Below are positions 50,705 through 64,000 of a stretch of 64,000 nucleotides of DNA, in pieces. Position 1 is the stretch's first letter, and every line of letters starts with the position of its first letter. The notes beneath the pieces are model-generated. The model saw only the letters and a program-made list of their open reading frames with translations. It ran no database searches and was not told where the DNA came from. The position numbers and the translations under genes were made by a program. Source of the DNA: an uncultured Verrucomicrobiae bacterium. Its GTDB lineage: Bacteria; Verrucomicrobiota; Verrucomicrobiia; Opitutales; JABDGR01. The DNA is taken from NCBI GenBank assembly GCA_963765205.1, contig CAVXVB010000007.1, forward strand, positions 356,901 through 420,900, written 5' to 3'.

Positions 50705-50899
50705 GGGGTAGGGGAGCGAAATGCTAAACCTGCCTGCCACCCCGCTCAACGACAATAATTTGAGGCCTTCGACACTTTGTTCGATAAGAAATTGAAACCG
50801 CAGATTGCGCAGATCACCCAGCCGCTTGCGGCGGGAGTGGCGCAAATTTTAACCCTCCACCCTTCGCTTCACGCGGGGTCACTCCCGGCGGCATCACTC

Positions 50900-51584
50900 C
50901 TGCTGCTTGCGGCTGGGAGGGCCTGGGCGCCACGGTCGTGTCGCTGGGGGCTGGCATCGGCGCAGGGCGCTGTTCGCGGACCGTTGAGCCACCGCGACCG
51001 GAGCCACTGGCGCGGAGCCGAATCCAATCACCAGCCAAACACAAGTGCCCACCAGCACGCCCATCAACAGTCCGCCGCCATACAACATCCAATCTTGTCC
51101 CAGCCGCGCTCGCAGCGCTGCACTTAATGACATTGAAGCCTCGGGGGGGCTAACCACGGGGGGCGCGGCCACGGGAATTTGCACAGCCGCGGCCGCGACC
51201 GGAATCTTCGCCGCCGCCACGGGAACCTTCGCGGAGGCAACGACTGGCGCCTTGCGCCGCGCTCGCGGTCGATGCCGTTGCCGAGGTCGGTTGCGCTTTG
51301 GGCACGCTTCGCGCCGCGGGAAGCGCCGGCGGCACCACCGCCGCGGCTTTCGGTAGTTCGGCCACCGGCTTGCTCGTCGCAGACGGCGCGGCGGACCCGA
51401 TCGCCAACTCTACCGAACTGGGCTGCTCGCCGGCCGAGCGCGTCCAACCGACCGGCGGCACGATTTGCACCATGCTCCCACACTTGGGGCAAGCAAGAAT
51501 ATCCCCGATCGCCGACTCATCTTTGACCTTGAGTCGGACCCGACATGTCGTGCATTGGATAGTGAACAGTTCCACGGCAAGCAT
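50900..51584 (-). CDS. Zn-ribbon membrane protein (planctomycete-type), frameshifted and 3'-truncated
   Basis: CTTC...LACPKCGSMV, Pro/Ala linker, TM segment in ORF 50894..51220. Confidence 0.65.
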
Positions 51585-51775
51585 TCGAGTTGTCAGGTGC
51601 GTCGTCAGTCGGCCGTTCCATTCGGCCGCAATAAAACGGGGGCCGGCTCAAGTCGACTCGCGACAAATCCCAAGAAACGGCGAAGCCCGCGGCACGCGCG
51701 CCTCCATTTTCCACGTCGCCGCTGGCTGACCAGTATCCAGTATAGTGCCAACGGCCGGTGGCCCAATGCGCCGGC

Positions 51776-54700
51776 TTACGTTTTTCTGGGGGAAGTTTTC
51801 CCGCTGGCATCGGGTTGGGAGGCCGGGCTCGCATCGAATTCCGGGGGAATCTTCTCTCCCCGCTTGGCGGCGGCGGCGCGGGTGGTGACGAATATCGCCT
51901 CGCGGTCGCCTTGCGGCCTGACGACATATACCAGCTTGCCTTGCGGATTGGCCAGTTTCAGCACCTTTTGCAAGATGTCGCCGGCCGGCTGCTGGCGCTC
52001 GTCGAGCCCGAACGACTGGTTCTTCGTGATCCCCTCCAATTGCAGGTCGGGGCCAAGAATAACGACGTCCACGTCGATCTCCTTGGAAAGCATCTCGAGG
52101 CACCGTTCCAGCGTGTCGCGCGGAAAACTCAGCGAGATCTTTTTCCGCAGCGCCGCCTCCGTCGTCGGCCGCTCTTTGGTCTGCGCGGCCTGGCGGCCGT
52201 CGGTTCGCCGGGCGACTCCAACAGCGCCAGATCGGCGCCGAGCAGCAGGTTGTGCGCGGCGATCCCCGGCAGATAGCAGCGCAACACGGCCTGGCGGTTT
52301 TCGGCGCCGCTGCGCGTATAGTCGCTCAGCAGCCGCATCATGGCGGAAAGCGCATCACGATCAGCCGGCCATAGGGCTGCGGTTCGAGCGAGGCCACGTA
52401 CGTCTCCACCTCGTTGGCCGCGGTGTCCAGCCGGGTCCGCAGCAGCTCGCCGACGCGCCTGCGGCATTTTCTCGGTCGTCCCGATTGCGCAGCTCCAAAA
52501 ACAAATCGTCTCCGAGTTGGCGCTCAGTGAAACGGCCTCGATCGTTTCGTCCAGAAAAGCGGCCAGCGGATCGCGCAGTTGGGCCAGGCTGCCGACCAGC
52601 AGGCCCTTGCCGTCGGTCAGCAAATAACTCGGCGCCAGCAGCAGATTGAACTGCCGCGAGCTATCCGTGTCGCGCAGCAACCGCTCGATCCCCTTGCGCA
52701 GCAGCGGCGGGCCGTCCTGCGCCAGGATTTCCTGCATCATCGCGTCCGGCGAAATCACCACCACGCGCCCCGCTCCATCGGCCGGAAGATAGTAGGCAAA
52801 CCGAGCGCCCTGAAAGTATTTCTTCGACCCATGTTCAGCGGCCCGCGGGCTCGACCAGCGCTCGAGCAGCGTCGCCTCGGGAATGTCGCCACGCAAGGCG
52901 CAGGCTGAACGTCGTTTGCAAATCGCCGGCTTCGTTCGGCAGCCAAGCGATCGTCAATTGCTCCACGTCCGTCAACTCGACACCGAGGATCGCGGTCAAT
53001 TCCGTCTTGGCCAGGTCGCCCGCCGGACCGAGCGCGTCGAACAGTTTCGCCCCCTCGGAGCTCGCCAGCAGTTCGGCCGGCCGCCAGACCAGGATCACCT
53101 TGCGCCGGACGGCAGATAATCGAGCGTCGAAGAGTGCGCCGCCGGGGGGCGCGGCCCACAGCGTCTCGCCATCGTCGTCCACTTCCGCCGCGGCTTTCTT
53201 GGCCGTGCCCCTCGGCGTCAAGGATTCACTTACGCCCGGCTCCGCCGCCGTCTCGCCAGCCGTCGATTCGGCAGCGCACTGCTATCTGCTCGTTGACCGC
53301 CACGCCGGCATCCGGCGGCGGCGCTGTCTCGTCCGATCCGCGCAATGCGAACCCCGCCACCACGACCACGGCCACCAGGGCCAAAGCAACCCCCGCGCCG
53401 ACGATCGTCGTATTCGAAAACCGCCCTTGCGACGCCTTGGCCCGAGTCGAGAAACTCGACATACGCGGCGCCTCCCAAGCGCGTTGGCATCTGGCGTCTC
53501 TTCGCCGGACGAAGCCGCCGTGTCCGCCGGCGATTGCCGTGCCTCTCGTGTGACGCCCGCGTCCGCCTGACCGGGGTCGTCCCGTTGCGTTCCGGCCGTC
53601 TCCTTGGGCTCGCCGCCGGTGTCGCTTCACCCAACGTTCGTGGTTTGTCCGCCACTGGCTTGAGGATTGGGGACTTGGGCATTGGAGTGCCGGGCATTGC
53701 CGGTTTGGGCATCGCGGGCTTGCTCGCCGCGGGTTTCGGCGGCGTGGGCTTCGCTTTGGCGATTTCCCCCTGCTCGGGCGCCGCTGGCGTGGGCTTCGGT
53801 GCCGCGCGATCCGCCGGCGGAGTCGCCTTTGGGCGCGACGTTCGCGGCCTGTTGCGGCGGTGGCTGCCAGGCCGGCGCTTGCCAGACTCCGTAGCCGGGC
53901 GCGGCGTATTGCTATCGAGTCTCGGCGGGCCGGCCGTGGTGTGTTTCGAGCCCGAAGCCAGCGGCGCCAAGAGATGGGCCACCTGGCTCGCCGTTTGACA
54001 GCGCAGTAGCGGTTCCTTGTCGACCATCTCGGCCACAAGATCGGCCACGTCCTCTGGCACGCCCGGCATTAGGCGGTCGACCCTTTGCGGCACTTCGGAT
54101 TGATGACGCCGGAGCTTTTGCTGCATCGTGCCGCCGGCAAACGGCACCCGACCGACGAGCAACTCGAACAGCGTGCACCCCAGCGCGTACAAATCGGTCG
54201 AAGGGCTGCACGCCTGGCCCGCATCCGCCAGCTCGGCGCGCAAATAATCGGCCGCCGGCAACTCGAACCGCTTCATGGCCGCGGCATCCCGCGTCAGCGG
54301 AAACTGCAACAGCCGCGTCGTGCCCGCCGAGTCGATCCACAAATTCTCGGGACAAACCCCGCCGTGCGCGATCCCCTGCGCATCCGGCACCACCAGCCCC
54401 AACGCAGCCTGAAAGCCGACGCGGCAGGCCGCCTCCCACGAGAACTTCTGACTGCCCAGCGCCTCGCGAAGGCTTTGGCCGGCCAAATCCCCCAGGACGA
54501 CGAAAGCGTGCGCGTTGGAGATCTGCAACTGATAAACACGGTTGACGTGCGGGCTGCGGACGGTCGTTGCGGCCGCGGTCTGCCGCTCGATGTCGTCCAC
54601 CGGGTCGCCGCGCCCCGCCAACTGGGCCGCGAAGATCAACAGCACGGCTTGCGTTTTCTTGTACGTCGCCCGATAGCAATGCGCGAGCCGGCCGGTTTCG

Positions 54701-54945
54701 ATCCGCTCGCAAACGACGAAATCGCCAAACACGAACGGCCCGGGCCGCCCGGCCGCCAGCAACGAAGCTTGATACCTGCTACAGCGCCCGCCGGCCACGA
54801 GCCACTCGGCCAGGCTCGCACAGTTCGCCTGCTCGGCCGCCCCCTTCATGGCCGCGAACGCGGCGTGCAGCTCCTTGCACCGCGGAGCCGAAAGCAGCCC
54901 GCTGGCAACGGCTAGCTTCCAAAACTCGAGGATAGAAACGCTCAT
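51776..54945 (-). CDS. Planctomycete-type Ser/Thr kinase-like membrane protein, multiple frameshifts
   Basis: EFWKLAVASGLL...SRYQA..L..GRPGPF, HGGVCPENL, DLYALGCTLFELLVG; C-terminus ILGPDLQLEGITKNQSF. Confidence 0.75.
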
Positions 54946-55102
54946 GCAGCCAGCGGTTTGGCCCGCGGGGCGCCAAACATCGTTAAAGCCCTGCCCGCCA
55001 GGTGCCCAGTCGCGCGCACGTGTTCCGGAGTCTACCAATGTACCACGCCGAATGCGCAGGCGTGCAAAAAACCGACGGTGCGGGGAGTGCGTCGGTCTGA
55101 AA

Positions 55103-55342
55103 TCAAGTTTCCGCGATTTTTTTTGGCCGGCGAGTCGGACCGCGCTTATTGTCTCGTTGCTTTTGCTCCTTGGCCTTTTCCTTCTTCACGATTACCGCCT
55201 CGTTCGCTGCCAGCCGACGAGCGACCCAGCGCGGATCGTCTTTATCGTTGGGATCACTGAGCTTCTTAAGAAGCGAGACACGCTTCGCCTTGATGCGGGT
55301 CAATTTCCACTTCTTTCTTCGACCGACTCGCGGGATGGCCAT
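55103..55342 (-). CDS. Array unit A: basic 79-aa hypothetical protein
   Basis: The ORF fills the space between two motifs; its stop abuts the end motif. Confidence 0.6.
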   Translation of the reverse strand: MAIPRVGRRKKWKLTRIKAKRVSLLKKLSDPNDKDDPRWVARRLAANEAVIVKKEKAKEQKQRDNKRGPTRRPKKIAET

Positions 55343-55364
55343 TCGTGGACCTCGAGGGAGTGGG

Positions 55365-55631
55365 TCAGTCTGAAATCAGTTCTTTGGAAATCGCCCGACC
55401 GTGGCTTTGGCGTCGAAGCCAGCGGAACCGCCAAAACTGCCATGCGCAGTATCCGAGAACGATGGGAAACCACCACAGGCTAGCTGCTCTGTAGCCAATG
55501 ACCTGCTCGACCTGAGGATGAAAGAGCATTGCGCACAGGCCCAGGACCGTACCCAATACGCAATAGGCAACACACGAAAAGAGGAGGTCGGAAGCAAGTC
55601 CGGTCAAGTATTCTTTGCGGCCTTCGCTCAT
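55365..55631 (-). CDS. Array unit B: 88-aa 2-TM protein
   Basis: TATAAT-6nt-ATG (MSEG); ends ISD* within the motif. Confidence 0.75.
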   Translation of the reverse strand: MSEGRKEYLTGLASDLLFSCVAYCVLGTVLGLCAMLFHPQVEQVIGYRAASLWWFPIVLGYCAWQFWRFRWLRRQSHGRAISKELISD

Positions 55632-55699
55632 AGCCCCATTATAGGGCGGGAGGGGTTCAGTCTGAAATCAGGTTTTCGAAAACAGCTCCTGGCATTCCG

Positions 55700-55974
55700 C
55701 CACGCTAAAGTTGAACGCCTCCGAAATTCACCAGCAGAATCGCGAATAAATACAAGGTTCCGATTGCCAGCCCGACGGCCAGTCCTCAAGCGCGGATAGC
55801 CAAGTAGTTCTCCCATCGCGGCGAACGGGCTCACCGCCAGCACTAAAGCTCCGGCGAACAGTATGAATGCGTTCATTTGGTCCGGGGAACCGAAGCAAAC
55901 GACAGTCGCGACGAAGCAAGCGGCGCCCAGTACGCAAACCGAGGCCAGCGTGGTTTGTCGGGGACTTTGCTCAT
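55700..55974 (-). CDS. Array unit C: small membrane protein, frameshifted
   Basis: TATAAT-8nt-ATG MSKVPDKPRWPRF, hydrophobic segments in shifting frames. Confidence 0.5.
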
Positions 55975-56012
55975 TGAGGGCCATTATAGCCAGCCGAGAA
56001 ACAGGCAGTGCG

Positions 56013-56498
56013 TCAGTCTGAAATTGGATTTTTGGAAATCCGCTGCGGCTTTTCTTGCAACTCGAATTTCAACGTCCTTATCTCATCATTGAAGTTGCGC
56101 CGTTCCTCGTCTGTGTACGATTGCAGACCTCGGTAGAGCGAATCGTTGTACTCGATGATTGCCGACAGCTTCAAAGCCCACAAAAGCGTGGCAGCCATCG
56201 CCACTAGGGCCACAATCGTCAGACTTTGGCGCGAATCGACAAATCGATACCGCTTTTCTAGCCTGCCAGAAACGAGATTCCAGACAATAACTCCGATTCC
56301 AATCCAAAGCACGACTCCGGATGCTGCTGCCGCCAAGACAAGGTTCGGGAAAGCCAGCGGCAGCCCTTCGACGATCAGGGAAGGCGGGTTCGTAGACAAT
56401 CCCGCCACGACGGCCGCAATCGTCACCGCAATAAACGTCGCTTGCAAGCTATAGGCAAAGCGCCATCGTCGACGGTATTTTCCTGAACCTTCGCTGAT
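56013..56498 (-). CDS. Array unit D: membrane protein with planctomycete RRRW-x-SL-x-T motif; ATC at the start position
   Basis: CATAAT-8nt-ATC AGC GAA GG in frame; RRRWRFAYSLQATFIAVT; ends NPISD*. Confidence 0.7.
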   Translation of the reverse strand: MSEGSGKYRRRWRFAYSLQATFIAVTIAAVVAGLSTNPPSLIVEGLPLAFPNLVLAAAASGVVLWIGIGVIVWNLVSGRLEKRYRFVDSRQSLTIVALVAMAATLLWALKLSAIIEYNDSLYRGLQSYTDEERRNFNDEIRTLKFELQEKPQRISKNPISD

Positions 56499-56546
56499 AA
56501 AGAGCCATTATGGGCGAGCCGGAGGGCAAAACGAAAGTTCCCTCAC

Positions 56547-56762
56547 TCACAAAGTGCGGCACACTGTATCCGAACTGCCGTAGGCTGTCCGCACGAATCC
56601 CTCGGCCCGAAAAAACAGGATCGCCCCGACGACCAGATAGACCGCGGAACCGATCATGGCCTCAGGCGCCGGCAAAGCGGCGGTCATCGAGATTGCCCCA
56701 TTGGCGATCAACCACAGCCCAATCGTCCTAACTGCCACGCCGAACAATTCCTTTGCATTCAT
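56547..56762 (-). CDS. Array unit E: 71-aa 2-TM protein (lacks both motifs)
   Basis: MNAKELFGVAVRTIGLW; AGGGG upstream. Confidence 0.65.
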   Translation of the reverse strand: MNAKELFGVAVRTIGLWLIANGAISMTAALPAPEAMIGSAVYLVVGAILFFRAEGFVRTAYGSSDTVCRTL

Positions 56763-56787
56763 AACGCGCCCCTGAATTGGTTGTGCA

Positions 56788-56982
56788 TCAGCTTGAAATC
56801 GGATTCTCGGAAACAGGCTCGTCCAGATCGGAGGGCTTTGGGAACCAACTCCACAAGTATCGGTGCACTCGGATCGCAAACGCAATCGCGGCAGCCACCA
56901 GCAACAGCAGCGAAATGACCCAAACGACGCGGCCGATCCAAAGGACCAACAACGTCAGTCTAGTTTCGGGGCCTTCGCTCAT
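56788..56982 (-). CDS. Array unit F: 64-aa 1-TM protein
   Basis: CATAAT-8nt-ATG (MSEG); ends NPISS*. Confidence 0.7.
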   Translation of the reverse strand: MSEGPETRLTLLVLWIGRVVWVISLLLLVAAAIAFAIRVHRYLWSWFPKPSDLDEPVSENPISS

Positions 56983-57043
56983 GGAGGGCAATTATGGGCC
57001 AGCTGGAGAGCGCAAAAAAGAAAGCCGCCCTGCGGCGAGTGCG

Positions 57044-57446
57044 TCAGTCTGAAATTGGATTCTCAGGAAGCGGCTCTGGCGGCCCAGCTCGATAGGGCAG
57101 GCGCTTCTCGCCGCGAAACTCAGCGTACACCCGATAAACGCATTGATGCAGCCTCAGCGTGTCACACCAGTAATCCTTGATGCGTCCGAACGACTCAAAG
57201 AGACCCTGGTTAAACCCGTTCTCGATGTCGTTGTACCAGATGACTTGCTGACCAATGATCGCGACGATCCAAAAACCGCCGCCAATATTCCCCATGGTGG
57301 AAGCACCATCGTACAGGCTCGATGCGAATTTGATCCCAAAATGCGCGCAGAGGAGGTTCCATCTCTGATTCGCCGGCAGCGATCAGCGAGAGCAAATCAT
57401 CTCTGCTGATTGGTTCCCAAGTCGAGCTGGGGGGGCGTTTGCTCAT
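57044..57446 (-). CDS. Array unit G: soluble hypothetical protein, frameshift near 57297
   Basis: WEPIS...IRIEPVRW + GGGFWIVAIIGQQVIWYNDIENGFN...YWC; ends NPISD*. Confidence 0.75.
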
Positions 57447-57791
57447 CGCGGGCCATTATAGGCGAGCGGGTGAGAGTGTAAGAAGTGCCTTGCGGGGAGC
57501 GCCGCCAGTCCGAAATCAGAGATCCTGAAAATACCGGTGTCAGGAGCCATAGAGTGAGACCGCGACAAAAAATGGCGGGAAGGTCTCGGCGTAGGTGAGC
57601 ATCGCGGAGAACCCAAGCATTCCGAATGTCCGCTCTGGCTGCTCCCACTTCGTCAGGAGCATTGAAGAAATCGCCCAGGCGTTTACCGCGTAGGCGATTA
57701 GGGTTGCGGACATCAAGAGAACCGGGCCATTGCGCCAACCGACGAAAAAGGCAATTCCATATACCGCGGCAATGCCGGCCAGCTTTAGGAT

Positions 57792-58879
57792 GGCAGCGTC
57801 AACTCTCAATTGCAACAAGAGGCTCGAATAATTCGGCGGGGGTTCGATAGTTGAGCCGTTTTCGCGGCCGGTCGTTGATCAGTGTGGTGTAATGTTCTAA
57901 CTCCTGCCAGGAGACGGTACGCAGGTCGGTGCCTTTGGGGAGGAACTGCCGTAACAGGCCGTTGGTGTGTTCATTCGTTCCTCGTTGCCAGGAACAGTAC
58001 GGCTGGGCGAAGTAGACGTTCATGCCGAGTCGTTTGCTCAGCCGTTCATGCTCAGCAAACTCTTTACCGTTGTCGAAGGTCGCCGTCCGGCGCAGCCTGG
58101 CTGGCAGCCGGCCCAACCGCGATTGAATTTTGTCGGCCACGCGTCGGGCCTTGCGGTCGCAACTCTTTGCGGAGAGCAAATACCCACTCTTGCGTTCGAC
58201 CAGCGTCACGACCGCTCCCGACTGCCGTGCGCCGACGACGGTATCTCCCTCCCAATCACCGTACCGCCGTCGCGCGTTGACCACCCGTGGCCGGCCCTCG
58301 ATCGAAACCTGGCGGGGAATGCGTCCGCGGCGATCATCGCCAGGCCGGCGACGCCCGGCGAACCGCAAGAAGCCCGTAAAATGCTGGCGGTCGGCGCTCG
58401 GTTGCGCGTGGATCCAGGAATAGATCGTCTGGTGCGACACCTGCCGGCAGCGCGCGCCAGGAAAGTCACGCTTCGATCGCCCCGCAATCTGGTCGGGTGA
58501 CCAGTAATGCACCAAATGGCTCCGCACAAACTCGTCCACCTCGGGCCGATCCATCTTCCGTACCAACCTTCGGCGGTGGCGCCGCTGACGCGACTGCTCG
58601 TGAGCCGCCACGGCCCGGTATTCGCCGGCCACCGAGTTGCGCGCCAACTCGCGACTGATCGTCGCGCGGTGCCGCCCCAGTTCTTCAGCGATCTCGGCGT
58701 TCGTAAACCGGGCGTAGCGCATCTGGGATATGCGTTCTCGTTCTTCCAAAGTAAGCTGATGGGCCATCGCTGGGACTCCGTTCGACCAGTCGTTGGAAAT
58801 GGGTCGACTAGTCGAACTCCCAGCGATGTTTTCACCAACAGCAATTCACCTCGCGTTGCGCTTTAGATTAGACGCTGCC
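57792..58879 (-). mobile_element. IS30-family insertion sequence
   Basis: Imperfect 31-bp TIRs beginning GGCAGCGTC; GAT duplicated at 57789-91 and 58880-82. Confidence 0.93.
57799..58767 (-). CDS. IS30 transposase (intact)
   Basis: LTLEERE..I HTH, WSPDQI, GDWEGDTVVG, DNGKEFA, WQRGTNEHTNGLLRQFLPKG. Confidence 0.96.
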   Translation of the reverse strand: MAHQLTLEERERISQMRYARFTNAEIAEELGRHRATISRELARNSVAGEYRAVAAHEQSRQRRHRRRLVRKMDRPEVDEFVRSHLVHYWSPDQIAGRSKRDFPGARCRQVSHQTIYSWIHAQPSADRQHFTGFLRFAGRRRPGDDRRGRIPRQVSIEGRPRVVNARRRYGDWEGDTVVGARQSGAVVTLVERKSGYLLSAKSCDRKARRVADKIQSRLGRLPARLRRTATFDNGKEFAEHERLSKRLGMNVYFAQPYCSWQRGTNEHTNGLLRQFLPKGTDLRTVSWQELEHYTTLINDRPRKRLNYRTPAELFEPLVAIES

Positions 58880-58993
58880 GATCGTTTTCGCCGATTTGTC
58901 GAGTAGGGGACCATTATAGGCGAGCGGGAGTGAGGCAAAAAGCAAACCGCCTCGGAGGCAGCACGTCCATCCGAAATCAGATTTCCCAATCAG

Positions 58994-59263
58994 TCACTCG
59001 CCCAGGATCGCCTGTTTGGGAGCCAGAATATGACCGCGAAAAACACGGCGAAATAAGCCCAGGTGCCCAGAACGTTCCAGTGGGCCCCAACAACGACCAA
59101 AACGCGGCGAGCAAGGAAAACAGCACCACATAACCATCGGTTCTACCGCCTCGCCTCGCAAGATGGCTGTGCCCACCGCAAGCAACGGCGACCCAGAACG
59201 TCGCCACGAGCATATTTCGCAGATTCGTCTGGAACCATGCGGTTTCGTGGGGGCTTCGATCAT
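58994..59263 (-). CDS. Array unit I: small membrane protein, frameshifted
   Basis: TATAGT-8nt-ATG; FQTNLRNMLVATFWVAV motif. Confidence 0.6.
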   Translation of the reverse strand: MIEAPTKPHGSRRICEICSWRRSGSPLLAVGTAILRGEAVEPMVMWCCFPCSPRFGRCWGPLERSGHLGLFRRVFRGHILAPKQAILGE

Positions 59264-59272
59264 AGGTGGCTA

Positions 59273-59377
59273 CTATAGCCAGCCGAGCAACGAGGCGGTC
59301 AGCAGCGCGATTATAGCAATTGCCATGACCGCTCCCGTGGCCACAAACCATTTCGGCGGATCGCCGTCGAAAATCAT
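59273..59377 (-). CDS. Array unit J: 34-aa single-TM peptide
   Basis: TATAAT-7nt-ATG; MIFDGDPPKWFVATGAVMAIAIIALLTASLLGWL*, hand-translated. Confidence 0.55.
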   Translation of the reverse strand: MIFDGDPPKWFVATGAVMAIAIIALLTASLLGWL

Positions 59378-59578
59378 GGGGGTCATTATAGCCAGCCGAC
59401 AAGGCTTCAACCTTCCCGCACACGACAGCACCCCCGCCCGGCGTGAAATTGCATCGCGAATCGCGTATCTTGGGAGTTGAGCGAGACGGCACGTCAGGCG
59501 CTCGACGCGGCATGGCAGTTCGCACCCACGGCACTCATGTTTCTCGTGTTCGCAAACACATCTTCCCGACTCCAGACA

Positions 59579-62270
59579 ATGGTTACGACGGCGGAATCCT
59601 TTCGACGGCCGTTGCGCATCATCAGGCCGGGCGATTGCGCGAGGCCGAAGCCTTGAGTATCGACAGATTCTGCAAGCCGAGCCCTACCATGCCGACGCGT
59701 GCACCTGCTCGGCCTGCTGGCCCACCAGGTCGGCCGCCACGACACGGCCGTCAAGCTGATCAGCCAGGCGATTGCCCTGCGTGGAGACCAGCCGGCTTTC
59801 CATTCCAATTTGGGCGAAGTCTATCGGGCCATGGGAAAACTGACCGAAGCCGGCCAGTCGTTCCGCCAGGCCCTGCGATTGAACTCCACATGCCCGAGGC
59901 CCGCAACAATCTTCAACGTGCTGCGAGCGACCGGCCACACGCAGGAAGCCCTTGAGGCCTTTCGCACCGCGATCCGGCTGCGTCCCGAGTTTGCCGAGGC
60001 TCACAACAACCTGGGGCAGATCTCGATGCGCGGAGACCTGGAAGGCGAGATCGCCTGCCATCGCCGGGCGATCGAGTTGAATCCCTCCTTTGCCGACGCC
60101 CACAGCAGCCTGGGGACGGCACTGCAGGCCTGGGGGAAACCCCCGCCGACGCGATCCGCTGCTTCGAGCAAGCCTTGCAGCTTGCTCCTGCGCAACGGCC
60201 AGTATCACCTCAACCTGGGAGTCGTCTATCAAGGTCAGCGTAAAGTTCGACCAGGCCATCGCCTGTTACCGCGAAGCCTTGCGGCTGGCCCCCGCCACGG
60301 CCTTGGCCCACAACAACCGGGGAGTTGCGCCTGCGCGAGCAGGGGCAAGGCTTGATGAATCCGATCTCGGCCTATCGCGAGGCCCTCCGCGTTCAGCCCG
60401 ATTTTGCCGAAGCCCATTTCAATCTCGGCGTCGCGCTCGAGGGGGCCACGAGCTTGCGGCCGCCGAGGCCGAATTTGAAACCGCCGTGCGGCTGAAACCG
60501 GGCTTTAACTCGACGCCTGGAAATATCCACCACAGCCGGCTGTTGGAAACCCCAGGGGCGGCTTCGACGACTGGGCGCCGGCGCTGTGGGATCGGGCGTT
60601 GCAGCAAAACCCCGAGTATGCGTTGGCCCACTTCAGTCAGGCGAATATCTATAAACTGAAAGGCATGGCGGCCCAGGCGATCGCCTCGTTTCAAGTCGTG
60701 CTTCGCTTCCGGCCCGACTATGCCGCGGTATATATGAACATGGCGGCCATTTATCAGACCATGAACCTGCCGGATCAGTCGGTCGACGTCTGCCTGGCGG
60801 GCCTCAAGTTCGAGCCCAACAATGGCCTGATTCATGGCAACCTGGCGATCGGCCTGCACCAGCAAGGGGCGCAACGACGAGGCGATTGCAGCCATCGCCT
60901 GGGCGGTCGAGTTGCAGCCCGACGACGCCGGCGGACACAGCAATCTGCTGTACTCGCTCTTTATTCGAGGCCCGATTCGGACCCCGCCCGCCTGTTCGCC
61001 GACCATCTCGCGTGGGCCCGCCGGCACGCCGAACCGCTGACCGCGACGGCCCCTCCGCACACGAACGATCGGACGATCCACGGCGGCTGCACAACGGATA
61101 TCTTTCTCCCCCGATCTCCGCGAGCACCCCCTGCACGCATTTGCCGAGCCCATGATCGCGGTGCACGATCACGGGCAGTTCGGAAATCTTTTGCTACTCC
61201 GACGTCGAGACGCAGCTTGTCGACGCCACGACGTCGCGCGGTGCGGGCATCGGCCGACCAGTGGCGCGTCTGTGACCGGCAAATCGGACGCCGAGATTGC
61301 CCCAGCGGTCCGCGATGACGCCATCGACATCCTGGTCGATCTGACCGGCCATATTGGCGGCAACCGGCTTGTTTGACGTTTGCCCGCTCGCCCGGTCACC
61401 GATCCAGGTCACTTACCTGGGCTATCAAAACACCACCGGCATGTCGGCCATGGACTACCGGCTCTACCGACGAGCGGGCCGACCCGCCCGGTTCTGACCG
61501 ATCCCTTTTACACCGAACGGCTGGTGCGTCTCCCGCTGCCGTTTCTTCTGCTATCGACCCCTGGACGAAATGCCGCCGATCACTGCTCGCTGCCGGCGTT
61601 GGCCTCCGGCCGCGTGACGTTCGGGTCGTTCAACAATTTATCCGAAAAAATCACCCGGCAAGTGCTCGACACCTGGTTCGAAGATTCTCATGCGCGTGGC
61701 CCAATTCCCGACTGCTCGTGCTGGCCTATCGCGGCGGCTACTCGAACGGGATTACGCTGGCTCGGGGCGGTTAAACAGCGGGGGATTCATCCGCGCGGAT
61801 CGACCCTGGCACGAACAAATGTCGTGAAGGCCGACTATCTGCTGACGTGCAACAACAAGCCCCAACATCCCGCTCGATGCTTTCCCGTTCAACGGGCACA
61901 CGACCACGTGCGACGCGATCTGGATGGGCGTTTCCGGTGGTCATGCTTCGAAGGCCACAGCTACGCCTTTCGCGTTTCGGCGGTAGCGTGCTGGCCAACC
62001 TGGGGCCTCGAGAGATTCGATCGCCGGCTTCTGTGGAGCAATACGTCGAGACCGCGGCTTCTCTGGCCAGTTGACCTGCAACGATTGGCCCAGTTGCGGG
62101 CTCGAGTTGCGGCGGCGGAGGCCGCTCGTCCTCCGCGCCGTTGAATCGTCTTTCCCGGCTTTAACCTCAACCTGGAACCACGCCTATCGGCAAATGTGGT
62201 GCCCGTGGTGCGAGAACCCCGTCCCCCACCGCTCGCGATCGGCAGCCCGCCAGACCTTCCGCAGGATGAC
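59579..62270 (+). CDS. TPR + SPINDLY/OGT-family (GT41) glycosyltransferase, many frameshifts; end approximate
   Basis: HHQAGRL.EA, AHNNLG TPRs, IDILVDLTGH, YLGY.NTTG, TFGSFNN, DAIWMG. Confidence 0.8.
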
Positions 62271-62278
62271 CGTCATCA

Positions 62279-64000
62279 ATGATAAACGTTGCCGATGCCC
62301 TTCAGGCCGGGATCGATTTTCACAACGCCGGCAATCTTCGCCCAGGCCGAGCAGATGTACCGCCAGGTGCTGGCAGCCAGCCTTGCCATCCCCCTCTGCG
62401 CTTGCACTTGCTCAGCTTGCTCGCCTTTCAATCCGGCAACCCGCAATTGGCGATCCAGTTCGTGACGCAGGCCATTCGCATCGACGGCGGTCAGGCCGTG
62501 TTTCATGGCACGCTGGCCAAAGCTGACCGGCACGCGGGTCAACCCGTCTCGGCGATTGCTTGCTATCGCCAGGCATTGCGCATCAATCCTCAATACGCCG
62601 AGGGGCATAGCAATCTCGGAACCCTCCTGGCAAGCCGGCGGCGACGATGCGTCGGCAGCCGACTGCTACCGCGAGGCCCTGCGGTTGCAGCCCGCTTATG
62701 CCGCCGCACATCGAAACCTGGCCCAGCGTCCTGTGGACGGCGGCGGCAATATGGCTTGTATAGCTTTGTACTTTGGTCACGCTGTCCGGCTGAAACCCGA
62801 CGATGGCGAACTGACCTGGGACTCGGCTATACCCTGCGGGCGCCGGGAAAGCTGGCTGAAGTAGTCTCGGTTTCGAGGCTGCCGTCCGGTTCGCCACGCC
62901 AAACTCGCATTTGGCCCATTGCATGCAGGGGCTTTCGCTTCAAGCCCAAGACCGCCCCGAAGAGGCCATCGCACATCTATCGCCGGGCTATTCCAGATAT
63001 GTCCCACACTTTGCCGTAGTGCATCTACAACCTCGGCACGGTGTTACGCGAGCAAGATCAGCCGCTGGAAGCGTGATCGAAGCTTTTTGCCGGGCCCTGC
63101 AACACAAACCCTCGATGATCCATGCTAACATCAACGTTTCTCCCGGCTTTCAATATTCTGGCTCCAAGCTGACGAAGCGGTCGCCGCCAGCCGCTACGCG
63201 CTTGACCTGGATCCGCAAATGGCCCTCTGGCCACGGCCCATCTCGCCGACGGCTGCAAATGCAGGGAGAAATGGATGCCGAATCGCGGCCTACCGCCGGG
63301 CCGTGGAGTTGGGACCCCGCCAATGCGGCGTGGCACAGCAATCTGATCTATACGCTCAACTTTCATCCGGGTTACGACGCGGCCATGCTGCTCGCCGAAC
63401 ACAGGGCCTGGGCCCGCCGTCATGCCGACCCTCTGACCGGCAACACCGTGCCGCCGGCCAACGGCTCGCACGCCGCGGACCGGCCGCTGAGGATCGGCTA
63501 CGTGTCGCCCCATTTCCGCGAACACGCGGTCGCGTTTTTCAGCGAGCCGATGCTCGCGGCCCACGATCACCGGCAATTCCAGATTTTTTGCTACTCGCAC
63601 GGCAAGCCGGACGCCGCGACCCACCGGTTTCAGGCCGCGGCCGATCATTGGCGCGATGTGTTGGCCCTGGCGGACGACGCCGTGGCACAACGCGTGCGCG
63701 AGGATAAAATAGATATCCTCGTCGATCTGGCCGGACAGATCGCTGCTAAAATTGATCGCCGATATTCGCCCGCAGGCCGGCCCCCGTTCAAGCGACCTAT
63801 CTGGGATATCAGAACACGACCGGCATGGTGGCCATGGACTACCGCCTCATCCGATGCCCACGCCGATCCGCCGGGCATGACCGAGGCCTTTTATACCGAG
63901 CAACACGTGCGTAACACCGCCTCGCGAGTTTTTTGCTACCAGGCTCCCAATGTTTCGCCGCCGGTCAACGCCTTGCCCGTCCGGTGACGCGGGCCCGATT
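62279..64000 (+). CDS. Second TPR + SPINDLY/OGT-family protein, frameshifted, 3'-partial
   Basis: TPRs, [30 protein letters not shown]. Confidence 0.8.

Follow-up and report, generated by a model that had tools for sequence, protein, structure and literature searches.

How do ten small genes of unrelated sequence come to stand in line on one strand, each closed off by much the same short motifs? The locus that raises this question lies near the end of a 64,000-nt stretch of DNA (hereafter the window) from contig CAVXVB010000007.1 of assembly GCA_963765205.1, which is assigned to an uncultured Opitutales bacterium. Reading open reading frames (ORFs) and motifs together, we find 10 co-oriented ORF units on the minus strand at 55072-59402, between a Ser/Thr kinase gene (start 54948, minus strand) and a divergent tetratricopeptide repeat (TPR) gene (start ~59579, plus strand). 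We name them units 0, 1, 2, 3, 4, 4b, 5, 6, 7 and 8, and use L-numbers for loci elsewhere and G-numbers for genomes. Overall, we consider it likely that small-gene cassettes, descended from a family of insertion sequences (ISs) related to IS1, have piled up in tandem to form the array. Each unit appears to be built from a promoter/start box (P-box) at its head, an unrelated small cargo gene and one outward-read terminal inverted repeat (IR).

The start motif, (GCTCGCC/GGCTGGC)YATAAT followed after 6–8 nt by the start codon, heads 8 of the 10 units (0–7) and is absent from units 4b and 8. Several P-box units continue after these 6–8 nt with ATGAGCGAAGG, i.e., MSEG..., and unit 5 has ATC at the start position instead of ATG. 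A head composed of a -10 box, 6–7 nt and ATGAGCGAAGG suggests a leaderless mRNA whose product begins MSEG.... At the other end, an ATTTC(A/G)GACTGAC-like motif, framed here at 21 nt, closes 8 of the 10 units. As assembled, it forms the C-terminus in four of these eight (NPISD* in units 3 and 5, ELISD* in unit 7, NPISS* in unit 4); in the remaining four the ORF stops ahead of the motif and the motif is still present in the DNA, so that the conserved feature is the DNA and not the peptide. Co-oriented minus-strand units between the kinase and TPR genes, eight shared start motifs, and modular cassettes that each bring a promoter had all been proposed in a preliminary description of the window, and all are borne out, with a promoter-like -10 of its own for each cassette. 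Eight end motifs had been proposed as well and are present, but the C-termini of the ISD*, NPISD* and NPISS* type that they were said to supply are found as assembled in only those four.

Within the 4.02-Mb assembly, both motifs are exclusive to the array locus in their profile and extended forms. ATTTCAGACTGA occurs four times and GCT[CG]GC[CT][CT]ATAAT likewise four times, always at the locus. Profiles built from the window copies and searched with nhmmer return six end matches (E ≤ 6.4e-7; next-best genome match, E 0.021) and seven start matches (E ≤ 2.7e-4; next-best, E 1.1), again all at the locus. With up to one mismatch allowed, the 13-mer end motif has seven matches in the assembly, five of them at the array.

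The cargo between the boxes is unrelated, as the same description had held: all-against-all blastp of the window cargo gave nothing below E 0.05, and the weak matches reflected the shared ENPISD tail. Its figure of 1–3 transmembrane segments fits less well, most cargo having 1–4 hydrophobic segments and units 3 and 8 having none. No Pfam family reached threshold for the 12 window cargo ORF pieces or for 23 cargo of other genomes, the exception being the cargo of locus L046, an immunity-type protein (SUKH_5/SMI1_KNR4, E 3e-24). A search of 5.8 billion proteins yielded no homologue of unit 5, the homologue search yielded two for unit 7, and two cargo in the protein atlas fell into unnamed clusters only. 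More widely, the 28 non-redundant P-box genes start MSE, MSD, MST or MNE/MND and carry diverse cargo with only three recurring families, and the family common to L177 and L054 has a dN/dS of 0.11–0.25, i.e., purifying selection. Our guess is that the cargo may be small accessory or immunity-like proteins, one complete cassette elsewhere carrying a SUKH-family protein.

These comparisons bear directly on one alternative, in which a single ancestral small gene was duplicated in tandem and its coding parts diverged while its ends were conserved. Such a history would give units that are co-oriented, in tandem, similarly small and, in many cases, membrane proteins, as is the case here. Yet no two cargo show detectable similarity. 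Among them are a 34-aa product with a single hydrophobic segment, a soluble protein of ~130 aa and a basic one of 79 aa; elsewhere the same ends flank unrelated cargo and the same cargo stands in unrelated flanks. We therefore give tandem duplication almost no credence.

The end motif itself is the terminal IR of an IS1-related insertion sequence, from a family common in soil Planctomycetota, Alphaproteobacteria and Acidobacteriota. The pattern ATTTCAGACTGACNCACT (17 specified bases) occurs in at least 129 stretches in each of the genome and metagenome collections, against ~70 chance matches that we estimate for the genome collection, and the extended IR consensus is ATTTCAGACTGACCCACTACC. Among the matches listed, many ATTTCAGACTGACNCACT sites form inverted pairs 0.09–5.3 kb apart with 8-bp direct repeats outside them. 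Inverted IR pairs enclose a DDE transposase encoded by a single ORF of 294–299 aa, with IS1 as its best family; it lacks the insA/insB organisation with programmed frameshift, and single-ORF relatives of IS1 are known. IS1 was the best family in both libraries, with 54–57 bits vs a cutoff of 100 for NF033558 in three of three transposases and 22.2 bits vs a cutoff of 24.1 for PF03400. The IRs read GGTAGTG(C/G)GTCAGTCTGAAAT, and 8-bp target duplications occur at L265 (CGGAAAAG), L292, L046, L293 and many miniature elements; IS1 itself makes target duplications of 8–9 bp.

The correspondence with the window is best seen in a planctomycete copy, L080, whose left IR (IR-L) is GGTAGTGCGTCAGTCTGAAATTGAGTTTTCTGAAAT: the window end motifs match ~36 nt of its reverse complement, including the subterminal repeat ATTTCC.AAAATCC. 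The transposase of this copy ends in ...KKRRQSISD*, a tail encoded by the right IR (IR-R), ...CAATTTCAGACTGACGCACTACC; in the family the transposase tail ...KRGPYKK..ISD* is likewise encoded within the IR. The IR read outward contains the stop codon, which accounts for the ...ISD* tails in the array. The transposase of L080 is truncated, yet the copy has a target duplication matching at 7 of 8 positions. With up to two mismatches allowed, just 3 genomes in an even draw of 401 Planctomycetota carry the IR, which is thus clade-restricted.

The P-box was also considered as the transposase's own promoter and start, and rejected: close transposase copies (L300–L306) use TTGACA, 17 nt, CATAAT, 6–7 nt and ATG, and their products start MKQL or MN(I/V)L. 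The 17-nt promoter spacer of these copies holds an inverted repeat (GCTTGAGCG.TCAAGC). Their layout suggests that the transposase gene is leaderless and probably auto-regulated. Transposases of the assembly itself (contigs C5 and C9) were rejected as owners of the array IR since these copies lack it; they are two IS1-like genes of the Opitutales part (G000:C5:344236-345084 and C9:674865-675671), 54% and 47% identical to that of L017.

The family also has many non-autonomous derivatives. Miniature elements of 87–152 nt with the same IRs and 8-bp duplications occur in several phyla (L185, L194, L237, L047 and L058, among others). In an Acidobacteriaceae metagenome-assembled genome (MAG), six tandem 119-nt miniature elements (L084:210-970) repeat with a period of 127 and an identical 8-nt spacer, CAAAATCG, which argues for amplification and not for independent insertion.

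Does the whole unit, and not only its end, occur elsewhere? Related planctomycetes hold the series P-box, -10, N6–7, ATGAGCGAAGG, variable cargo and IR in three forms: as cassettes with two IRs and 8-bp duplications, as the outermost passenger of a transporter IS (tIS), and as solo intergenic units. The two-IR form is seen in L292, L046, L294 and L293. Complete cassettes with both IRs and a P-box measure 347 nt in G458 (L292, duplication CTATGCCC), 505 nt in a Pirellulales MAG (L046, duplication AGACATCG) and 475 nt in G452 (L294, duplication matching at 6 of 8 positions). The tIS form is represented by an intact 5.3-kb element (L265, at G448:C1:6064600-6069897) whose 8-bp duplication is perfect. 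It runs, in order, IR, MSEGP cargo, P-box, passenger genes, a 294-aa transposase ending ...LISD*, and IR, and so combines the IRs, transposase, unrelated passengers and duplication expected of a tIS; the MSEGP cassette is the outermost passenger at its left end and reads outward. The other passengers (L265:2016-5816) are a DprA/SLOG-like protein, two unknown proteins, a lysine-rich 84-aa protein, an XRE-type helix-turn-helix protein and an M78/IrrE-type peptidase, a set that looks like conflict or defence-type genes. The lysine-rich 84-aa gene recurs in L080, L053 and L293.

Start and end motifs lie 250–450 nt apart on one strand in L013, L015, L024, L054, L063, L080 and L177; they also co-occur in L196, another small array, where the spacing is longer or that of an array. 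L177 and L054 share their cargo, with homology that runs from the -10 to the IR terminus between unrelated flanks, which indicates that the unit is discrete. Across 26 related genomes, we counted 36 P-boxes in 12 genomes (0 with a reversed-pattern control); IRs numbered 60, spread over 17 genomes (control, 4). Of the 36 P-boxes, 17 are followed downstream on the same strand by an IR with up to three mismatches, and several others, by eye, by degenerate IR remnants. The preliminary description had looked to a motif scan of Planctomycetota for units with structure, and these do recur. Among the solo units, L013 lies between aldH and purM, where four relatives have spacers of 62–190 nt and two others have unrelated small insertions; no target duplication was seen at L013, L177 or L054.

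Since two-IR cassettes and the tIS passenger form both come with 8-bp duplications, the unit is most likely moved by an IS1-like transposase, acting in trans where an element has none of its own. The units are terminal modules of an IS1-like family of cassettes and transporter ISs that transposes with 8-bp duplications. A recombinase or a transposase working in trans had been suggested as the mover; we keep the transposase and consider an integron-like recombinase unlikely, for reasons that emerge from the junctions.

Two side observations concern the surroundings of such units. At L266:1090-1160 and at L267, P-boxes abut tRNA-like sequence on the opposite strand, with GGTTCGATTCC similar to a T-arm and CTCATAA to an anticodon loop; ARAGORN and Rfam both call no tRNA at these sites, and tRNA genes beside these P-boxes were rejected. 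Toxin-antitoxin pairs of ParE and MazF type occupy the same kind of intergenic hot spot at L264 (in G457) and L049, and they too use TATAAT-type boxes close to the start codon.

How, then, did the array come to this site? In six of six syntenic relatives (G042, G449, G457, G041, G447 and G448), the kinase gene lies close to the first TPR gene and is transcribed away from it, and landmark peptide motifs of the two genes lie 287 and 295 nt apart where both were located vs 4690 nt in the window. The array is thus a lineage-specific insertion of roughly 4.3–4.4 kb. Larger kinase–TPR gaps in G447 and G448 were tried as cassettes and rejected, as they hold extra TPR paralogues. One contig of low depth, from a related strain, runs along the kinase flank as far as the terminal IR's inner edge and there changes to different sequence carrying the family's subterminal repeat, which hints that the terminal cassette differs between strains.

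The position of the insertion follows a rule that we could examine across the family. Of 259 non-redundant IR ends from two unbiased scans, 20 have a TTGAC that begins precisely 15 nt beyond the terminus and 25 have one at 14–16 nt, where ~0.25 per offset is expected and control windows give 3/259 and 2/249. The spacers outside the IR ends are not conserved, and a -10 follows TTGAC. The IS family thus inserts preferentially 15 nt upstream of sigma-70 -35 boxes. At the kinase end of the array, the outer end of the terminal IR (unit 8, 55083-55103) lies 15 nt upstream of a -35-like TTGCAC whose first base is 55067. Inside the array, the distances from an IR to the next unit's TATAAT are 38, 35, 38, 15 and 4 nt, with 39 nt in L024; those of 38, 38 and 35 nt, and the 39 nt of L024, fit a target geometry of 15 + 6 + 17. 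At the 4-nt junction, in 55638-55666, TTCAGA of the IR sits 17 nt upstream of the next unit's TATAAT.

These junctions also weigh on the suggestion that the cassettes are circles taken out and put in by an integron-like recombinase, whose site would be a composite of IR and P-box. The limits of the unit, an IR terminus and the 5' edge of a P-box, are those expected of a circle cut where IR and P-box meet, and solo units lack target duplications, as such integration would predict. A site-specific crossover should, however, give a constant junction, whereas in the window the stretch between an IR and the next -10 measures 4 to 38 nt; every cassette brings a -10 of its own, and the motif is demonstrably a transposon end with 8-bp duplications. 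In 54900-59500, a search for inverted pairs of at least 14 nt returned the IRs of an IS30-family element and scattered distant pairs only, with no attC-like palindromes, in agreement with the earlier remark that long attC palindromes are absent, and an Rfam scan of the array gave no match. No recombinase gene lies beside the units inspected, although no systematic search for one was made. With variable junction spacing and a transposon end as the site, we regard an integron-like enzyme as improbable. The resemblance to integrons and to CALINs, i.e., clusters of attC sites lacking an integrase, extends to tandem co-oriented unrelated small genes, shared boundaries and an enzyme that is not nearby. 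The differences are that attC palindromes are absent, that the boundary is a DDE-transposon end with varying junction spacing, and that the cassettes are not promoterless, 8 of the 10 units having their own YATAAT 6–8 nt before the start.

The main rival is host homologous recombination between the P-boxes (~25–35 nt) and the IRs (~36 nt), which would make arrays grow and shuffle through unequal crossing-over, Campbell-type circle integration or gene conversion, with the transposase only seeding the first units. The same two boxes flank every unit, no left IR is required, P-boxes are fused directly to the preceding cargo with no IR between them (window units 0/1 and L278), and the 119-nt miniature element of L084 was amplified into its six tandem copies with one and the same 8-nt spacer, all of which recombination would accommodate. 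Yet the array boxes are mutually only ~63–88% identical, a poor substrate for recent RecA recombination, the 35–38 nt from IR to promoter fit the transposon target geometry, and this route gives no account of how new cargo first gains both boxes. Overall, we judge recombination unlikely to have built the array.

Under a stepwise pile-up of IS1-related cassettes, a first element would have landed 15 nt upstream of the -35 of the kinase promoter, and later cassettes before the promoter of the resident cassette, giving a co-oriented array. With the promoter of each cassette as the next landing site, both the tandem order and the common orientation would be explained. Left IRs would have been lost by adjacent deletion or by collapse of abutted IR palindromes; IS1-type adjacent deletion and the instability of such palindromes are plausible causes. 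The IS30-family element would have inserted later. The window units keep only the outward IR; they look immobilised and are probably no longer mobile.

Several points weigh against this history, the first being the missing left ends. On the minus strand of the window, no candidate for a left-end IR rises above background (best score, 10/21); the position upstream of unit 0, where the leftmost unit would be expected to retain one, comes 1244th of 6396. Stepwise insertion of two-IR cassettes therefore needs an extra, unobserved step of loss. No target duplication was seen at the window junctions, whose match to complete cassettes begins just inside the left IR. The P-box as a degenerate left IR was rejected for lack of similarity by eye, and the left-IR search does not support the whole array as one decayed tIS with a left IR near 59440-59465. 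Also on the negative side, the scores of the transposase against IS1 models stay under the curated cutoffs; the promoter of the transposase is not the P-box and so does not account for its origin; two junctions (15 and 4 nt) are far shorter than the 38-nt rule; and solo units such as L013, lacking a target duplication, may reflect either cassette entry or a deletion remnant. Finally, the ~13 kb present of the source organism offers no transposase with the array IR, the IS1-like copies of the assembly lack that IR and belong to its Opitutales part, and the assembly at the array is error-prone and probably chimeric.

This last point concerns the source of the DNA. Opitutales relatives match the window only at 44.0–50.6 kb, and 51.4–63.9 kb is syntenic with Planctomycetia/Pirellulales genomes at 65–72% DNA identity. 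The break between Opitutales-type and planctomycete-type DNA falls at 50850-51415 (C7:407750-408315). On its Opitutales-type side lie carbohydrate-active enzyme (CAZyme) genes matched by 9 of 12 relatives searched, the planctomycete-type side is matched by 20 of 26 planctomycete genomes, and the tetranucleotide signature of the contig drops only in the last ~11 kb. The last ~13 kb is thus planctomycete DNA on an Opitutales contig. The join is most likely chimeric and poorly polished, and may alternatively be a recent transfer. Because the array DNA is planctomycete, it has no match in 40 Opitutales relatives, and the host assignment of the window is not valid for the array, which lies in the foreign end of the contig.

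Nearly all long genes in 51100-64000 are frameshifted, among them the zinc-ribbon region (51150-53221), the kinase tail and several TPR/glycosyltransferase genes, a frameshift density typical of unpolished low-coverage long-read sequence. Units 1, 3 and 6 are frameshifted as assembled. An independent short-read contig from another sample has an extra G after 59237 that restores unit 1 to MIEAPTKPHWFQTNLRNML..., so that some frame breaks are probably assembly errors. Part of the stretch is present in 20 of 24 listed public runs, with word shares of 0.16–0.23; no public run covers the whole array, and full-length cover in the four runs examined is that of the IS30-family element.

Given such sequence, the array might be an artefact in which assembly, at a contig end of low coverage, merged reads that carry repeats but stem from several loci or organisms. 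It would fit this view that the last ~13 kb does not belong with the remainder of the contig, that frameshifts fill the stretch and that 25–40-nt repeats run throughout the array. These repeats are, however, far below long-read length; the kinase and TPR flanks are both syntenic with planctomycete relatives; short-read contigs from other samples bridge units 6/7 (55594-55744) and units 0/1 (59180-59385) and cover the boundary between the kinase and the unit 8 IR; and short arrays of the same build exist in L196 and L024. We thus consider an artefact very improbable.

How does a pile-up of IS1-related cassettes compare with known systems? The preliminary description had raised the prospect of an undescribed gene-capture system, which we do not sustain: the end motif is the IR of an IS1-related IS, and the cassette corresponds to a known class, the mobile insertion cassette (MIC) or tIS passenger. 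In the accessible parts of the literature, MICs, transporter ISs, solo IRs and IS hybrid promoters are established categories (PMC3129680, PMC6542083), and MICs such as MIC231 of the IS231 group in Bacillus cereus form a defined one. As those parts describe MICs, the likeness is that IS ends flank non-transposase cargo, that no transposase of their own is present (mobilisation in trans) and that target duplications occur (PMC3129680, PMC6542083); L292, L046, L294 and L293 are complete copies of this kind in relatives. The differences are that the parent IS here is IS1-like, that the cassettes have a standard leaderless promoter/start box and an IR that supplies the stop codon, and that the window units have one IR only and stand in a 10-unit co-oriented array.

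Transporter ISs, described in the accessible text of PMC3129680 as IS copies with passenger genes, are matched by the G448 element, with its IRs, transposase, six passengers besides the cargo module and 8-bp duplication. The window array differs in having no transposase of the IS1-related family and no second IR, i.e., only terminal modules, repeated. Hybrid promoters formed by IS ends are mentioned in the same text (PMC3129680), and TTCAGA of the IR 17 nt upstream of the unit 7 TATAAT resembles them, except that the -10 comes from another cassette of the same family and not from a host gene. IS26 translocatable-unit arrays and ISEcp1-type one-ended capture are further systems with direct IS ends interspersed with captured segments and growth beside an existing end. 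Those arrays contain whole IS copies or weak surrogate ends, whereas the array has true ends of ~36 nt only, and each of its segments is a single promoter-equipped gene.

A literature survey that was thin on subscription journals found no description of IS1-type cassettes or arrays in Planctomycetota, nor, within the same limit and with the proviso that the element may be in ISfinder, of a promoter-proximal target rule, a leaderless P-box/MSEG head or a ten-unit single-ended array. We tentatively raise the further possibility, which we hold to be doubtful, that IS1-like cassettes are a transposase-driven counterpart of integrons. They would combine a leaderless -10/ATG MSEG head, an IR-encoded stop and targeting to 15 nt upstream of -35 boxes in a standard frame open to diverse small ORFs, each cassette would be the next landing site and lend its IR as a -35, and strain-variable, co-oriented arrays of orphan genes, each expressed independently, would arise at promoter hot spots. 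Taken together, a puzzling array of orphan small genes is linked to a concrete, testable mover, and the IS1-related family gains unusual traits in its target 15 nt upstream of -35 boxes, its stop-encoding ends and its leaderless expression head. If the array does grow cassette by cassette, this would add a second route, driven by a transposase, by which genes accumulate as in integrons, here in a phylum that has received little study; it would also supply small membrane or immunity-type proteins with a fast turnover.

The individual units, all on the minus strand, are laid out as follows from the upstream edge. The P-box of unit 0 (GGCTGGCTATAATGACCCCCATG, 59377-59402) is the upstream edge of the array; its 34-aa ORF with one hydrophobic segment (59273-59377) has its stop codon inside the P-box of unit 1 (GGCTGGCTATAGT, 8 nt, ATG; 59250-59291). 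The unit 1 ORF, frameshifted as noted, spans 58990-59263 and is followed by a degenerate IR (58957-58977) with a terminator-like hairpin at 58946-58962 and the next TATAAT 38 nt off. Unit 2 begins with its P-box (GCTCGCCTATAATGG, 58894-58933), directly followed by the IS30-family element; the remainder of its ORF, with two hydrophobic segments, lies at 57540-57791 and its degenerate IR at 57496-57516, 35 nt from the next TATAAT. Unit 3, soluble, has its P-box (GCTCGCCTATAATGGCCCGCGATGAGC) at 57436-57475 and its ORF at 57044-57446, with a frameshift near 57295 and the end ...ENPISD* within the IR (ATTTCAGACTGACGCACTCGC, 57035-57055); a terminator-like hairpin lies at 57024-57036 and the next CATAAT 38 nt off.

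In unit 4, the P-box (GCTGGCCCATAATTGCCCTCCATGAGCGAAGG, 56972-57011) leads into a 64-aa ORF, MSEGP...ENPISS* (56788-56982), and a degenerate IR (56779-56799). The 71-aa ORF of unit 4b (56547-56762) has neither P-box nor IR; the start of a similar ORF is found, by eye, behind the L054 module. Unit 5 comprises a P-box (GCTCGCCCATAATGG, 56488-56527, with its ATC), an ORF with four hydrophobic segments ending ...KNPISD* (56013-56498) and an IR (ATTTCAGACTGACGCACTGCC, 56004-56024), the next TATAAT being 15 nt off. The P-box of unit 6 (GGCTGGCTATAATGGCCCTCAATGAGC, 55961-56000) precedes its frameshifted ORF (55690-55974) and its IR (55648-55668), whose TTCAGA has the hybrid-promoter geometry relative to unit 7. 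Unit 7 has its P-box (CCCTATAATGGGGCTATGAGCGAAGG) at 55618-55647, an 88-aa ORF, MSEGR...ELISD* (55365-55631), and an IR (ATTTCAGACTGACCCACTCCC, 55356-55376). Unit 8, without a P-box, encodes a basic 79-aa protein (55103-55342) whose tail, ...KRGPTRRPKK, resembles the IS transposase tail ...KRGPYKKR, and its IR is the array-terminal one.

The IS30-family element interrupting unit 2 measures 1,088 bp (57792-58879, minus strand) and lies directly behind the unit 2 TATAAT. It has 31-nt IRs that are 77% complementary and a 322-aa transposase (57799-58767) scoring 295 bits against NF033563 vs a cutoff of 80. Contigs from four of four runs confirm its limits (1088–1089 aligned nt). The element is widespread and probably active, as it is near-identical, with 5–8 differences per 1088 nt, in contigs of all four peat, soil and permafrost runs.

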